5,746 nucleotides of DNA from a virus (IMGVR_UViG_2671180814_000012); one strand, 5' to 3'; counted from the stretch's first letter, positions 1,086 to 5,054 are shown. The notes: generated by a model not told the origin, from the sequence alone. Numbers and translations: made by a program.

Positions 1086-1832
1086 TTACTTCACAACTCC
1101 CGGAAAGCTGACATTTGAACGCCAGCTATCCCAGTTAAACGTCACCCACCGACAACCGTTCATGGTCATGCGGTCCATAATCCTCTCACCAAGAAGCGTG
1201 CTCATTGCGGCATGATTCAGGTTTGTTAACATCCCGACACTGCACAGTGATGCTGTCCGGCGATCAATTATCTGGTGCAATACCACCTGCTCGTTTTTCG
1301 TCTCCCGCTGAATGCCTATTTCATCCAGGACCAGCAAATCAACCCCGCAAAGCTCCTGTAAAAATTTTTCACCGGATTTGCCGTTGTCGTAGCTGTCATG
1401 CAACACGCTCATGACATCAGACTCGGTGACGATAATCACGCTGCGCCCCTTCGCCATCAGCCGGTTACCCATCGCCGCTGCAAGGTGATTTTTCCCGGTG
1501 CCGGTTTTACCGCTGAACACAAAATTCGTGCACCCGGTCATCAGTTCGTCAGCTATGGATTTGGCCTGGCTCAGCGCGTATTTTTGCCCGTCGTTCTGCA
1601 CCTGATAATTCGCAAACGAGCATTTGCTGTGCAGAGGCTGGATGCCCGAACGATTCAGGATTTTTTCCACCCGCAACTGGCGATTCTGGCGGTTAATCTC
1701 CTCGCTGCGTTTTCGTCCTTCAGCAAGTTGCCATTCCCGCCACTCCTCCACCGTCCGGTACGGTGGAACCGCCCCCTGTGGTGCAAGTCTGTGAATACGT
1801 TCAAGAACCCCGGCTGCCGCAATGTTTTTCAT
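1086..1832 (-). CDS. dnaC: DnaC-like replicative helicase loader (AAA+ ATPase, IstB/DnaC family), phage replication protein P-position gene
   Basis: Walker A-like GKTGTGKNHLAAAMGN, which matches my recollection of the unusual GKN variant in E. coli DnaC. Walker B-like LLVLDEIG. Length 248 aa. Lies directly after the O-like gene (stop at 1839, start at 1832). The Rac equivalent would be ydaV. Confidence 0.85.
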   Translation of the reverse strand: MKNIAAAGVLERIHRLAPQGAVPPYRTVEEWREWQLAEGRKRSEEINRQNRQLRVEKILNRSGIQPLHSKCSFANYQVQNDGQKYALSQAKSIADELMTGCTNFVFSGKTGTGKNHLAAAMGNRLMAKGRSVIIVTESDVMSVLHDSYDNGKSGEKFLQELCGVDLLVLDEIGIQRETKNEQVVLHQIIDRRTASLCSVGMLTNLNHAAMSTLLGERIMDRMTMNGCRWVTFNWDSWRSNVSFPGVVK

Positions 1833-1838
1833 GCCACA

Positions 1839-2903
1839 TCACCCCCTGAATCCCGGCGGAATTTCGGTATCCGGTTCAGAAATATGATTCACACAACGCT
1901 GGTTGTTCGTGCCGCTTACCGGGAGCAACCAGGGGTTTTCAAAATTCCGGTCCGGCCCAAAAAACGTCGTCGCTCGCTGAACAAATTCCGTTCCCGCTTT
2001 CCCGGTCGCCGCCAGGTATCTCGCGTAACGCCTCACACCATCCAGCATGGTCTCTGGTGGCACCCCCTCGCGCAATCTGGCCTTCCAGGCACTGAATGCG
2101 GATTTCTTCGGGTTTGCCCCGGCACGCAACGGGTATTCCCGCCAGACCTGTTCGAACACATCCGGATAATCCACTCGTCCCACAGGCTGCCCGGTGTTTT
2201 CCGGGGCTACCCGATCGGCTTCCCGCTGAATGGCGGAATCGGCTTCAGGCTGCTGCAGTTGGAGTGATTGCTCCGGCCTTGCGGTCATCACCTGCTGCAC
2301 AGCGCCCGAATCGGCTTTCAGCGCATACGCTGAATCGGCTTCCGGTGTCGAGCCTGCTGGCTGACCAGGATTGACGGTCTGAACATCCCCTGCCTGGTTC
2401 GTGGCGTTTTTTACGCCATGGACCATAGTGTTTTGATCTTCTTTATCTGTATCTTTATCTGTATCTGTCGTGACTCGTCGTGACATGTGCGTGACATTTC
2501 GTGACGCGCCGTGACAATCGCCATTTTGTTCCCGCTTTCTTTCCCTCTCTCGCTGCGCCCTCTTGCGCTCTGCAGGAGATTTTGCGGTTTGCGAAATATT
2601 GCCGTTGTCCTCTTTAAGCACCTGGCGTTTTTCCCATCCAGTGATTAAATCACCATCAAGTACCCGCCCCTGCATCGTCTGCAAAATTGAATCAATTACC
2701 TCTTCTGTCACGTCGAGCGCACTTGCCAAATCTTCTGTCGTGACATCAATGTGACCTCGCGTGACATTTCGTGACGCGCTCACCAGGAGGTGGATATACA
2801 CTGCCATCACTGTTGCAATTGGCTGCCCTGACACCCTGGCAATTGTTCGCCACTTAGGGTCATTTGGCATGTCATGCCATAATCTGAGCCAGGCGTTAGC
2901 CAT
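1839..2903 (-). CDS. Phage replication initiator (lambda O-like functional position) with internal origin iterons
   Basis: About 354 aa from ATG at 2903, preceded by GAGGTG about 5 nt upstream (track ORF begins at GTG 2909). Located between the CII-position gene and the DnaC-like gene. Contains two clusters of phased CGTGAC repeats, as lambda O contains ori. Basic and acidic low-complexity linker (RKRAQRERERKREQ, TDTDKDTDKED). Confidence 0.7.
   Translation of the reverse strand: MANAWLRLWHDMPNDPKWRTIARVSGQPIATVMAVYIHLLVSASRNVTRGHIDVTTEDLASALDVTEEVIDSILQTMQGRVLDGDLITGWEKRQVLKEDNGNISQTAKSPAERKRAQRERERKREQNGDCHGASRNVTHMSRRVTTDTDKDTDKEDQNTMVHGVKNATNQAGDVQTVNPGQPAGSTPEADSAYALKADSGAVQQVMTARPEQSLQLQQPEADSAIQREADRVAPENTGQPVGRVDYPDVFEQVWREYPLRAGANPKKSAFSAWKARLREGVPPETMLDGVRRYARYLAATGKAGTEFVQRATTFFGPDRNFENPWLLPVSGTNNQRCVNHISEPDTEIPPGFRG
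2440..2463. repeat. Tandem 12-bp direct repeat tctttatctgta x2 (with a partial third copy tctgt), adjacent to iteron cluster 1
   Basis: Read directly: 2440-2451 and 2452-2463 are identical. Locally AT-richer than the surrounding gene. Encodes the acidic DKDTDKD stretch of the initiator on the minus strand. Confidence 0.8.
2469..2515. repeat. Iteron-like array 1: five CGTGAC copies phased at about 10-11 bp (candidate replication origin inside the initiator gene)
   Basis: CGTGAC begins at 2469, 2479, 2490, 2500 and 2510, roughly one helical turn apart. Lies in the middle (linker) region of the O-like CDS. Confidence 0.65.
2739..2779. repeat. Iteron-like array 2: four (C/T)GTGAC copies phased at about 10 bp, including a 21-bp exact duplicate of part of array 1
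   Basis: CGTGAC at 2739, 2760 and 2770, TGTGAC at 2750; an inverted copy TGTCACG at 2706-2712. gcgtgacatttcgtgacgcgc occurs at 2489-2509 and again at 2759-2779, exactly 270 bp apart. Confidence 0.6.
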
Positions 2904-2974
2904 ACTCACCTCTTCTGATACCGAATCTTTTTACTCACGAGTTGCCGGGAGCGATTCGATATGGCTATTGTCAG

Positions 2975-3400
2975 TCAATGTACTGCCACAGCATTTCCTG
3001 CCGGGCCACCACGGTTCATCTGATTGAAACCGGCGATTGCCACTGCGACAAAATCATCAGCGTCTCTCACCAGTCGTTCATGCGTCTCCACCAGTTCCCG
3101 AAAATAAGCTGAACTGTGGCTGCGCATTCGAGCCACCAGCGGAGGTGGCATTGCCCTTTCGATCGCAGGTAACAACGCCTGAATTTTTTCAACAGCGTCA
3201 GGGGTGTCTTTATCCAGCCAACGGAAAATCTTTTGGGTGTTGAGATAAAGCGTGTTGTGCTTGCTGTCGTTATGCAGAACCGGAAACGTCATTCCCAGTT
3301 CGAAATAAACCCTGGTTATTTCAGCTGCCGGAACTTTTTCACCGTCCGGATGCGCCCAGGCTTTCATCGCCATGCGGATGTGTTCATGCTTGATTTTCAT
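2975..3400 (-). CDS. ydaT: CII-position regulator, YdaT-like (proposed functional analogue of lambda CII in Rac/CP-933P-type prophages)
   Basis: 141 aa starting MKIKHEHI.... ATG at 3400 preceded by GGGGGTGA. Its start overlaps the stop of the upstream Cro-like gene (ATGA at 3397-3400). Position between cro-like and O-like genes. Family name is from recall of Rac YdaT (about 140 aa), not from a search. Confidence 0.6.
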   Translation of the reverse strand: MKIKHEHIRMAMKAWAHPDGEKVPAAEITRVYFELGMTFPVLHNDSKHNTLYLNTQKIFRWLDKDTPDAVEKIQALLPAIERAMPPPLVARMRSHSSAYFRELVETHERLVRDADDFVAVAIAGFNQMNRGGPAGNAVAVH

Positions 3401-3660
3401 GAATCACCCCCCGCCGATGGTTGTGTGTTAGCCTGAAACTCAGCAGGCAAGCCGTCAGTTGGGTTGGGGTAGGTTTTACTGTCAATCTCATGTGGGGTCA
3501 CCACCCATCCCGTTGCTTCACACCAACGTAATATTTTTTCTCCTGTAAGTTTTGCACGCCCCGTTATAACGTGGCTGACCATCCCTTGGGATGCGCCAAC
3601 AATCTCAGCAAATGAACTCTGGGTTATATGAAAATGATGCAAATATTCTCCAAGATTCAT
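3397..3660 (-). CDS. ydaS: Cro-like HTH transcriptional regulator (YdaS/Cro-CI family), first gene of the early-right-equivalent operon
   Basis: About 87 aa from ATG at 3660 (MNLGEYLHHF...), preceded by AGGGCGG; the track ORF extends to a TTG at 3687. Candidate HTH segment SFAEIVGASQGMVSHVITGRAKLTGEKILR. Divergent from the repressor gene across an operator-containing intergenic region. Confidence 0.65.
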   Translation of the reverse strand: MNLGEYLHHFHITQSSFAEIVGASQGMVSHVITGRAKLTGEKILRWCEATGWVVTPHEIDSKTYPNPTDGLPAEFQANTQPSAGGDS

Positions 3661-3696
3661 AATCCGCCCTATGTGATGTGTTACCAATGCATAATT

Positions 3697-3759
3697 AATA
3701 GCACTGTTATTTTTAAAAGTAAATAGTGATGCTATTTCAAAGTGATTAGCAATCTTATT
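3697..3759. promoter_or_regulatory. OR-like operator region: three 15-bp dyad-symmetric sites between the divergent repressor and cro-like genes (expected to overlap PR/PRM-type promoters)
   Basis: Sites at 3697-3711 (aatagcactgttatt), 3722-3736 (aatagtgatgctatt, near-perfect palindrome) and 3745-3759 (attagcaatcttatt, weakest). Centre-to-centre spacing is 25 and 23 bp. Half-site consensus AATAGY / GCTATT. A candidate minus-strand -35 TTGAAA sits at 3740-3735 with a poor -10; promoter hexamers are not confidently assignable. Confidence 0.6.
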
Positions 3760-3771
3760 AGAATTGGATGT

Positions 3772-4272
3772 ATGAAAAGAAAATCATTGTCAGACACCGA
3801 CCTCAACGCCGCCAGAAGACTGAAAGAAATCTGGATGGCAAAGAAATCTCAGTTGGGATTGACTCAGGAACGTGCGGCGGAAATTATGGGGTTTTCAACA
3901 CAAGGGGCGGTAAGTCACTACCTAAATGGTCAAACCCCACTAAACCTTGAGGCTGTTCTAAAGTTTGCTGGCTTACTGAAAGTTCCCCCTGAGTCAATCA
4001 GGCCAGACATGGTAGATTTGCTGCAAATTGCAAGGATGTATTGTCGAGAACCACAGCAAGATAACATAGTCGCATTACCAGCAGACACAGAACAAACAGA
4101 GGATGAACTACCGTTTGCCGTAGAGCCGATGGAACGAGATTTAATCCATACGTTCAGAGCTTTTCCGAAAGAAGATCAAGAACACATGCTTCAGGAGATG
4201 AAAGATAAAAAAGAATCAATGGATCGTACGGTTGCGCGGTGGTTAGCTGCACAAAAAGGCCGTCGCGCCTAA
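3772..4272 (+). CDS. paaR2: Prophage repressor with a lambda CI-like N-terminal HTH domain and a short acidic C-terminal region lacking a LexA/S24 peptidase domain (RacR/PaaR2-like)
   Basis: From ATG 3772 (MKRKSLSDTDLNAARRLKEIWMAKKSQLGLTQERAAEIMGFSTQGAVSHYLNGQ...), 166 aa. This aligns by eye with the lambda CI N-terminus (...[41 protein letters not shown]...). The track ORF starts at GTG 3742, which would run through operator site 3. No Ala-Gly cleavage site or Ser/Lys dyad context is recognisable. Symbol is recall-based and tentative. Confidence 0.75.
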   Translation: MKRKSLSDTDLNAARRLKEIWMAKKSQLGLTQERAAEIMGFSTQGAVSHYLNGQTPLNLEAVLKFAGLLKVPPESIRPDMVDLLQIARMYCREPQQDNIVALPADTEQTEDELPFAVEPMERDLIHTFRAFPKEDQEHMLQEMKDKKESMDRTVARWLAAQKGRRA

Positions 4273-4291
4273 ATCAGAGGAGATATGTAAA

Positions 4292-4486
4292 ATGAGTACA
4301 GTCCTTTCCCCAATGGTTTCAGAATTTGAGACAGTTGAGCAAGAAAATAGTTACAACGAATGGCTGCGGGCCAAAGTAGCAGCAAGCCTCGCGGATCCCC
4401 GCCCGGCGATTCCGCATGATGAGGTAATGGCGGAAATGGAACAAATTATTGCCCAAATTGCTGCTGCAACTCACAGAGGTGAATAA
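4292..4486 (+). CDS. paaA2: Small type II antitoxin partnered with ParE (PaaA-like, ParE-associated antitoxin)
   Basis: 64 aa (MSTVLSPMVSEFETVEQENSYNEWLRAKVAASLADPRPAIPHDEVMAEMEQIIAQ...). AGGAG 8 nt upstream of the ATG. Its stop overlaps the toxin start (TAATG at 4483-4488). Size and partner match my recollection of the roughly 63-aa PaaA2 antitoxin of E. coli O157; unverified. Confidence 0.65.
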   Translation: MSTVLSPMVSEFETVEQENSYNEWLRAKVAASLADPRPAIPHDEVMAEMEQIIAQIAAATHRGE

Positions 4487-4776
4487 TGTTACCCGTTTTA
4501 TGGCTACCATCTGCTCGTGATGATTTGCGCCAGATCGTAGCCTACATAGCTAAAGAAAATCCCGCGGCAGCACGCAGAATGAAAATTCGAATTGAAACAT
4601 CCGTTTTGCCGCTCACAGAGCATCCTTACCTGTATCCTCCAAGCGAGCGAGTTCTTGGTCTTCGTGAAATTGTAACTCATCCTAACTACATCATCCTTTA
4701 CCGAGTAACAGCATCAAGCATAGAAGTAGTAAATATTGTGCATTCTCGAAGACAGTATCCAGGCAAAAACAGTTAA
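4486..4776 (+). CDS. parE2: ParE/RelE-superfamily toxin (ParE-family type II toxin)
   Basis: 96 aa. ParE-like pattern: N-terminal LPVLWLPSARDDLRQIVAYIAKENPAAARR and C-terminal YRVTASSIEVVNIVHSRRQYP (ParE consensus ...I.I.RVLH.R.D-like). Overlaps the upstream antitoxin by one base. Followed by an intrinsic terminator. Confidence 0.8.
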   Translation: MLPVLWLPSARDDLRQIVAYIAKENPAAARRMKIRIETSVLPLTEHPYLYPPSERVLGLREIVTHPNYIILYRVTASSIEVVNIVHSRRQYPGKNS

Positions 4777-4792
4777 TTATTCCCGCCGACAG

Positions 4793-4818
4793 AACCACCT
4801 TAGGGTGGTTTTTTCTTG
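4793..4818 (+). terminator. Rho-independent terminator closing the repressor-antitoxin-toxin operon
   Basis: Stem aaccacc (4793-4799) pairs with ggtggtt (4804-4810), loop ttag, followed by tttttctt (4811-4818), 17 nt after the parE stop. Confidence 0.7.
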
Positions 4819-4832
4819 CCCCAACAAAAAAC

Positions 4833-4875
4833 AATAGCGATGCTATTTACATCAAAAAAATAATGATGCTATTGT
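4833..4875 (+). promoter_or_regulatory. OL-like operator pair carrying the same dyad motif as the OR region, overlapping a candidate PL-type promoter reading rightward
   Basis: aatagcgatgctatt at 4833-4847 is a perfect 6-3-6 palindrome; aataatgatgctatt at 4859-4873; spacing 26 bp. Candidate -35 TTTACA (4846-4851) and -10 TATTGT (4870-4875) with an 18-bp spacer, both overlapped by the operators. Confidence 0.55.
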
Positions 4876-5054
4876 TTCAGGCGTCAACCCACCCCGCCCC
4901 ACAGAATGCAGGGCAATACTTCGAGTTACCAGACAGTGGTCAGGGGTTAAGTAGCCAGCCCGAGGCGTAAGAACATGACGGCAGGGTTCAATCTTTAACT
5001 ATGCAGCAGGTTTTTTGTTCCGCCACCCCGGCGTTAAGGGGAAATGAGGTCAGC

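Follow-up and report, generated by a model that had tools for sequence, protein, structure and literature searches.

A candidate lambda-type tripartite operator between divergent repressor and Cro-like genes of a CP-933P-related lambdoid prophage

The viral sequence IMGVR_UViG_2671180814_000012, a stretch of 5,746 bp analysed here in full (hereafter, the window), corresponds to the part of a lambdoid prophage devoted to immunity and replication. Between a repressor gene on its plus strand and a Cro-like gene on its minus strand, both encoding helix-turn-helix (HTH) proteins, lies a 63-bp stretch (3697-3759) with three operator-like sites. The original prediction for this stretch was a tripartite operator resembling the rightward operator (OR) of phage lambda. 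In this study, we examined the sites, the promoters around them, the two proteins likely to bind them and the equivalent loci of related prophages, including the characterised prophage CP-933P of Escherichia coli O157:H7.

Results

The predicted pair of divergent genes was recovered, and the three 15-bp dyads between them were found at exactly the positions proposed, with 1, 2 and 3 mismatches to the ideal dyad AATAGCANTGCTATT, which was used for mismatch counting (Table 1). The operator word of the window is AATAGCAnTGCTATT. Centre to centre, sites 1 and 2 are 25 bp apart and sites 2 and 3 are 23 bp apart, in agreement with the anticipated spacing of 23-25 bp, and the repressor ATG begins 12 nucleotides (nt) past the end of site 3, as had also been stated. 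Site 1, the nearest to the Cro-like gene, harbours the extended -10 element of a putative rightward promoter (PR-like) on the minus strand. Site 2 adjoins the -35 element of this promoter on one side and, on the other, the -35 element of a putative promoter for repressor maintenance (PRM-like), whereas site 3 lies within the PRM-like spacer and takes in the first base of the PRM-like -10 element.

In the entire window, the dyad pattern (at most 3 mismatches) has five matches against 0.20 expected, a number that was equalled in none of 200 shuffles of the whole window. Because the intergenic region between the repressor and Cro-like genes (111 bp) has a GC content of only 30%, it was also shuffled on its own: three or more sites were obtained in 0 of 20,000 dinucleotide-preserving shuffles, and the probability of at least two was 0.0003. 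A chance origin of the three sites is excluded.

Table 1. Features of the window (minus-strand promoter elements are numbered in their own direction; HTH, helix-turn-helix)
Feature	Position	Strand	Sequence	Description
DnaC/IstB-like ATPase gene	1086-1832	-		
O-like replication gene	1839-2909	-		
DUF1627 gene		-		In the minus-strand group with the replication genes
ydaT	2975-3400	-		PF06254; PHROG 163, CII-like activator (E = 3e-40); 77% identical to CP-933P YdaT
YdaT operator-like inverted repeat	3390-3407		TTGATTTTCATGAATCAC	Junction of Cro-like stop and ydaT start; 1 mismatch to TTGATTN6AATCAA
Cro-like HTH gene	3397-3660	-		87 residues; in the position of YdaS; PHROG 35 (E = 1.8e-16)
PR-like promoter	3695-3723	-		-35 TTTACT (3723-3718), 17-nt spacer, extended -10 TGcTATTAA (3703-3695); from parallel with PL-like promoter and conservation
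OR1-like site (site 1)	3697-3711		AATAGCACTGTTATT	12/15 positions self-complementary; 1 mismatch to ideal dyad
OR2-like site (site 2)	3722-3736		AATAGTGATGCTATT	10/15 positions self-complementary; 2 mismatches
PRM-like promoter	3736-3764	+		-35 TTCAAA (3736-3741), 17-nt spacer, -10 TAGAAT (3759-3764); consensus scanner, 9/12 matches
OR3-like site (site 3)	3745-3759		ATTAGCAATCTTATT	8/15 positions self-complementary; 3 mismatches
Repressor gene	3772-4272	+		166 residues; lambda-CI-type N-terminal domain, disordered linker, PaaR2/DicA-type helical C-terminal domain
paaA2-like antitoxin gene	4292-4486	+		33-residue PaaA2 stability-determinant domain
parE toxin gene	4486-4776	+		E = 7e-37 to PDB 5cw7 ParE2
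Terminator-like hairpin and U-rich tract	4791-4812	+		-15.1 kcal/mol, z = -3.0; 2/200 shuffles as stable
OL-like site a	4833-4847		AATAGCGATGCTATT	3' end extends into PL-like -35
PL-like promoter	4846-4875	+		TTTACA, 18-nt spacer, TG-extended TATTGT; scanner call
OL-like site b	4859-4873		AATAATGATGCTATT	Holds PL-like TG-extended -10
ydfA-like gene		+		Beyond parE

The same arrangement was found in relatives. Twelve related loci were compared, from E. coli, E. albertii, Citrobacter braakii, Salmonella diarizonae, Rouxiella, Yersinia frederiksenii and metagenomes; a scan of genome contigs yielded four loci, and most came from repressor-encoding contigs and viral contigs. All 12 carry three sites before the repressor ATG, spaced by 24-25 and 23-24 bp and at the same distance from the ATG, with site 1 at the equivalent position or no more than 2 nt from it. 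The family half-site is AATAnC. When the window was scored with a refined weight matrix built from the relatives only, its five sites (three at OR and two at a second operator described below) occupied the top five positions, at 17.5-20.7 bits, and nothing else in the window reached the listing threshold of 11 bits. With the first, unrefined relatives-only matrix, the five sites scored 14.1-16.9 bits and the next best position of the window 8.1. An ungapped block of nine non-identical loci (the window plus eight relatives) showed identities of 100% for the outer AATA/TATT bases, 69% for the inner bases, 77% for the spacers and 42% for the 36 nt toward the Cro-like gene. Moreover, 62 IMG/VR contigs with a relative of the repressor, some of them 40-65 kb long, provided 31 further distinct intergenic regions, most of which have three sites at OR and two at the leftward promoter (PL).

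The second operator of the window is a pair of sites at a PL-like promoter, which is directed into the conserved early-left region ydfA...dicB. This putative leftward operator (OL) stands right behind the terminator hairpin of parE, as it does in lambda and CP-933P. Among the relatives, 11 of the 12 loci have exactly two OL sites, 24-26 bp apart and 0.5-2.9 kb downstream, past the cargo genes linked to the repressor.

Regarding the promoters at OR, the PRM-like promoter was the sole plus-strand call of the consensus scanner within 3600-3850. Its -10 element is TAGAAT or TAAAAT in the relatives, and the distance from this element to the repressor ATG, 7 nt in the window, is 6-7 nt in all of them. 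Since the -10 element is only 7 nt away, transcription is predicted to start at the ATG or within 1-2 nt of it. No usable Shine-Dalgarno sequence was found before the repressor ATG, and the geometry of the -10 element and ATG supports a leaderless repressor mRNA. The syntenic repressor gene of CP-933P, paaR2, is leaderless by experiment (PMC8630535). A GTG further upstream (3742) was considered as the start of the repressor and discarded: it falls inside site 3 and the PRM-like promoter, it is GAG in three relatives (L010, L011 and L022), and it conflicts with both the lambda alignment and the PGAP annotation, which begin at MKRK.

The PR-like promoter is built in parallel with the scanner-called PL-like promoter (TTTACA-18-TGcTATTGT): the minus-strand end of site 2 runs on into TTTACT, and site 1 holds TGcTATTAA. 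In relatives, TTGACA or TTTACA and TGnTATTnn occur in the same places at both PR and PL. This promoter would drive the Cro-like gene and ydaT.

Given that the N-terminus of the repressor matches lambda CI and its C-terminus matches PaaR2 and DicA, the protein combines a lambda-type DNA-binding head with a PaaR2/DicA-type tail. Residues 2-81 align with the N-terminal domain of lambda CI (PDB 1lmb, E = 3e-9), and the alignment includes the basic N-terminal arm (MKRKSLS against STKKKPLT). In the AlphaFold model (mean predicted local distance difference test score, pLDDT, of 79, and above 85 in the N-terminal domain and the C-terminal helices), five N-terminal helices are followed by a disordered linker (92-111), a short helix (119-129) and a long helix (133-165). 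In a Foldseek search, the N-terminal domain superimposed on N-terminal structures of lambda CI with template modelling (TM) scores of 0.81-0.93, a root-mean-square deviation of 1-2 A and 37-40% identity. The positive-control patch of lambda CI, E34 and D38, touches region 4 of sigma-70; the repressor has E33 and E37 at the aligned positions, the latter being invariant in the family. At the other end, the repressor and CP-933P PaaR2 are 52% identical over the final 44 residues (E = 5e-15), residues 106-162 match positions 74-130 of the NCBIfam DicA profile (E = 7e-8; the whole protein stays below the DicA family cut-off, with 32 against 101 bits), and 64 residues show 56% identity to the O157 PaaR1-type protein.

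A relative from a Pseudohongiella metagenome-assembled genome (L009, 2429-2489) shares the recognition helix of the repressor (QGAVSHYLN) but ends in a canonical S24 C-terminal domain, and its repressor gene is preceded by three AnTACCGCCrGTAnT sites at -65, -42 and -19 whose central bases resemble the lambda operators. The N-terminal domain and the geometry of OR are thus retained when the C-terminal domain is exchanged. Other relatives of 240-255 residues (P0013-P0023; loci L006, L015, L017 and L019) have tandem HTH domains, with a lambda-type head followed by a PaaR1-type head and the shared C-terminal tail. Only AATAnC-type sites are common to OR and OL in these two-HTH relatives, and an operator for the second head, sought in the 244-residue relatives, was not found.

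The nearest characterised system is that of CP-933P (Sp12 of E. coli O157:H7), a bistable locus in which the parts of CI, Cro and CII are played by PaaR2, YdaS and YdaT, respectively (Jurenas et al. 2021, PMC8630535). In that prophage, both PaaR2 and YdaS give footprints on the intergenic region of 97 bp, and both regulate the PL promoter as well (PMC8630535). Its locus, L005, was found by means of a primer in the supplement of PMC8630535; two other O157:H7 candidates were set aside, as L002/L004 proved to be a PaaR1-type paralogue and L003 is without the toxin-antitoxin module. The window and CP-933P share the gene order ydaT, Cro-like gene, divergent repressor, paaA and parE, the replication genes being on the far side of ydaT, and have operators at OR and PL and a YdaT operator at the same junction. 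Protein identities are 77% for YdaT, 75% for PaaA2, 67% for ParE2 and 52% for the last 44 residues of the repressor. In contrast, BLAST found no similarity between the two in the repressor N-terminal domain or in the YdaS/Cro-like protein, and the operators of CP-933P are GTTTAGTAA-type repeats rather than AATAGCAnTGCTATT. Considering that the DNA-binding domain, the Cro-like protein and the operator word all differ, the two prophages are heteroimmune, and on these comparisons the locus of the window is a heteroimmune version of the PaaR2/YdaS/YdaT switch.

At the DNA level, the window is homologous to L005 over ydaT (to 3406), over the repressor tail together with paaA (4207-4425), over the 3' portion of parE (4607-4733) and from 4885 onward (93%). 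The middle of parE (4426-4606) is too diverged for DNA alignment, although the ParE proteins are still 67% identical. All five sites fall in the two gaps at 3407-4206, which holds the Cro-like gene, OR and the repressor N-terminal domain, and at about 4734-4884, which holds the terminator, OL and PL. The DNA just 3' of the PL-like promoter (ACCCACCCCGCCCCACAGAA...; 4885-5044 of the window, compared with 3116-3276 of L005 and with L002) is 93% conserved between heteroimmune prophages, while the operators immediately upstream of it are unrelated among them; it may represent a conserved leader or nut-like region of the early-left transcript.

In total, three heteroimmune versions of this backbone were distinguished, each with its own operator word at both OR and PL: AATAGCAnTGCTATT in the window, ACAATAAAAAACTGT in the O157 PaaR1-type prophage and GTTTAGT-type repeats in CP-933P. 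In every version, repressor and Cro-like protein have a recognition-helix motif in common, reading, respectively, TQGAVSHY and SQGMVSHV in the window, TQQTVQQW and AQQTVWQW in the PaaR1-type prophage, and SYLSQLMSGR and SYLSQMASGR in CP-933P. This covariation of the operator word with the DNA-binding domain is the strongest in-silico argument that the sites are operators of the repressor and the Cro-like protein. The C-terminal helical module, the divergent repressor and Cro-like genes and the downstream ydfA...dicB region of the window are also found with DicA/DicC of the Qin prophage and with the PaaR1-type repressors of O157 (132-133 residues); the N-terminal HTH domain and the operator words are different in these.

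The likeness to lambda that had been proposed for the layout of the sites was borne out, since the site centres agree with those of lambda within 1-2 bp: measured to the repressor ATG, OR3, OR2 and OR1 lie at 19, 42 and 66 nt in the annotated lambda record and at 20, 43 and 68 nt in the window. Common to both are three dyads between divergent repressor and cro genes, a homologous repressor N-terminal domain (37-40% identity) with the same fold, N-terminal arm and acidic patch, a site proximal to the repressor promoter that is the odd one out, a -10 element so close to the ATG (6-7 nt) that a leaderless repressor mRNA is implied, and a PL operator behind the terminator that closes an accessory operon. 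The differences concern the sites (17 bp with the half-site TATCACC in lambda, 15 bp with AATAnC in the window), the number of OL sites (three in lambda, two in the window), the Cro-like and CII-like proteins, which belong to the YdaS-like and YdaT families and not to those of lambda Cro and CII, and the repressor C-terminus, which is of the S24/LexA type in lambda and a helical module of about 50 residues in the window. As this module replaces the S24 domain, RecA-mediated cleavage is not expected.

In phages 434 and P22, repressor and Cro are matched within each phage: they have recognition-helix residues in common and occupy the same three operators, in opposite order of preference. The window is similar to them in that its repressor and Cro-like protein have alike recognition helices with a common motif, QGxVSH; beyond the HTH fold, there is no sequence relationship to 434 or P22.

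Turning to the neighbouring genes, ydaT and the Cro-like gene overlap by 4 nt, and YdaT is the functional analogue of CII. A YdaT operator, TTGATTN6AATCAA, has been mapped at the ydaS/ydaT junction (Prolic-Kalinsek et al. 2023, PMC9986795). The corresponding pattern is unremarkable in the window when taken alone (three matches against 3.9 expected), and the repeat at 3390-3407 is assigned to this type because of its position and its homology to the CP-933P site rather than by pattern statistics; the sequence at the CP-933P junction is nearly identical to it and aligns with it. The repeat is probably a control site of the type found at the promoter for repressor establishment (PRE). Downstream of the repressor, paaA2 and parE would be co-transcribed with it, in the slot held by rexAB in lambda. 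The hairpin at 4791-4812, which a simple terminator scan missed, looks like a tIMM-type terminator closing the repressor operon before OL and PL. An Rfam search of the whole window matched no family.

The cargo between the repressor and OL/PL varies among the relatives (L015/L016, L017/L018, L019 and L020/L021), comprising HipA_2 with DUF3037, HigB with an HTH protein, or small open reading frames, as opposed to PaaA2-ParE in the window. Judging from this variation, the slot behaves like a rexAB-type moron slot under repressor control.

Of 5,426 complete E. coli genomes, 72 have at least 80% of 3300-4300, the repressor/cro region, with 97.9% identity in the best E. coli match. Shigella sonnei is on record with a repressor protein identical to that of the window. 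A DNA search with 3397-4272 against 50,697 phage records gave no match, so that this immunity region is absent from the cultured phages of that collection; a protein search of phage records returned only lambda-type CI at about 31% identity, and a literature search for the operator word retrieved nothing relevant; no paper or phage record was found with the operator word or the repressor.

Discussion

Taking the geometry, conservation and covariation together, we identify the 63-bp stretch, with a probability of roughly 0.85, as the OR of a bistable immunity switch of the lambda type, carried by a lambdoid prophage. The original prediction went on to expect ordered occupancy from a graded match of the sites, and only part of this claim holds. 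An affinity gradient from site 1 through site 2 to site 3 was rejected, given that the refined relatives-only matrix gives 17.5, 19.7 and 18.4 bits, respectively, and sites 1 and 2 cannot be ranked by the family matrix. What stands is that site 3 alone deviates from AATAnC, and it does so in all 12 loci: its half-sites agree with the consensus at a mean of 3.4 and 3.9 of 5 positions, and both are off-consensus in every locus. A perfect AATAnC site is found at site 1 in 9 loci, at site 2 in 7 and at site 3 in none, and at the two OL positions in 10 and 7 of 11 loci. Even so, the outer bases of site 3 (A.TA....TATT) are 100% conserved although both halves deviate. The deviation fits a weak or Cro-preferred OR3-like site, and it fits equally a constraint imposed by the PRM promoter. 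A 13-nt inverted repeat (3652-3664 and 3744-3756, 85% complementary, arms 79 nt apart) joins the start-codon region of the Cro-like gene to site 3 and is probably due to chance.

These properties of site 3 are also what would be expected if only sites 1 and 2 were repressor operators, bipartite as at PL, where two sites are the rule in 11 of the 12 relatives' loci, with site 3 serving the Cro-like protein only or being kept as spacer and -10 context of PRM. Its departure from AATAnC in both halves, the lack of any perfect copy among the 12 loci, the base it shares with the PRM -10 element and its filling of the PRM spacer all agree with such an arrangement. However, site 3 retains the dyad frame, the fully conserved outer bases and the exact 23-bp spacing, a degree of conservation that is unusual for promoter spacers; it stands in the position of lambda OR3, and its 18.4 bits were obtained with a matrix from relatives only. 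We therefore regard a bipartite operator as unlikely and a tripartite OR as the better description of the locus.

Less probable still is that the sites resemble one another as a consequence of AT-rich promoter sequence or of promoter element duplication, without a dedicated binding protein. The region does have a GC content of 30%, and some stretches of the sites are at the same time -10 or -35 sequence, but three sites arose in none of the 20,000 composition-matched shuffles, the sites are dyad-symmetric, their outer bases are fully conserved beside unconserved flanks, and the operator word tracks the DNA-binding domain in three immunity types. That the palindromes are instead operators for the autoregulation of PaaA2-ParE, upstream of whose operon they lie and as classical type II systems achieve through palindromes in their own promoter, is the most improbable of these explanations, as the same sites and spacing occur in relatives with other cargo (HipA-like with DUF3037, HigB with an HTH protein, small open reading frames), the PaaA2-like protein lacks a DNA-binding domain, its only match being to the 33-residue stability-determinant domain, the region is footprinted by PaaR2 and YdaS in CP-933P (PMC8630535), and the sites recur at PL, outside the toxin-antitoxin operon.

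Several observations weigh against a lambda-type OR. The domain search found no S24 peptidase domain (Peptidase_S24) in the repressor. In lambda, this C-terminal domain provides pairwise cooperativity and RecA-stimulated self-cleavage, so that both cooperativity and induction must differ here. A third OL site was not found at the PL-like promoter of the window, leaving two against the three of lambda. The Cro-like protein has no PDB match and only a weak Pfam match to an HTH domain. The PR-like promoter was not called by the consensus scanner, which misses it because the last base of its -10 element, TATTAA, is A in place of the usual T. The mismatch counts suggest a gradient from site 1 to site 3 that the family matrix does not reproduce. 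Finally, the prophage is possibly defective, which would leave the switch nothing to control but the early genes and the toxin-antitoxin cargo.

If the stretch is the OR of such a switch, we infer a mechanism that extends from binding by both proteins to the order of occupancy, activation, the leaderless start and looping. Repressor dimers would recognise the 15-bp dyads through the half-site AATAnC. With sites 1 and 2 occupied, the PR-like -10 element would be covered and its -35 element abutted, turning off the Cro-like gene, ydaT and the replication genes. The dimer at site 2 (-43) could then contact region 4 of sigma-70 and stimulate the weak PRM-like promoter, from which transcription would start at or beside the repressor ATG, giving a leaderless mRNA that also bears paaA2-parE. 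Site 3, off-consensus and within PRM, might be the last to be filled by the repressor, resulting in negative autoregulation, the first to be filled by the Cro-like protein, or both. The same repressor would silence the PL-like promoter through the two sites at 4833-4873. The helical C-terminal domain of the PaaR2/DicA type presumably provides the oligomerisation needed for cooperative binding, and perhaps for looping between OL and OR.

Whether the locus also defines a new lambdoid immunity group is, in our view, an even call. Such a group would be characterised by the operator AATAnC-N3-GnTATT, by a natural chimeric repressor in which a DicA/PaaR2-type oligomerisation tail replaces the S24 domain, by the lambda OR geometry preserved within 1-2 bp and by two OL sites. 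No concept would be changed by it, as the switch follows the same logic as lambda and the published CP-933P system; within this well-known kind of system, the immunity specificity is new and the repressor is chimeric. For this immunity type of Shigella, E. coli and related prophages, the analysis provides an operator map comprising OR1-3, the OL pair, PR, PRM, PL and the YdaT site.

If this grouping is correct, the 23-25 bp spacing at OR would be set by the N-terminal domain and the promoter architecture, and not by the C-terminal domain. The family then offers a natural comparison, in which a lambda-type N-terminal domain and geometry are combined either with an S24 domain, as in Pseudohongiella, or with a DicA/PaaR2-type tail, and this comparison could show how cooperativity and induction work without RecA cleavage. 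Under the same assumption, the switch would be independent of the SOS response and would guard a variable slot for toxin-antitoxin and defence cargo, including ParE, HipA-like and HigB modules.

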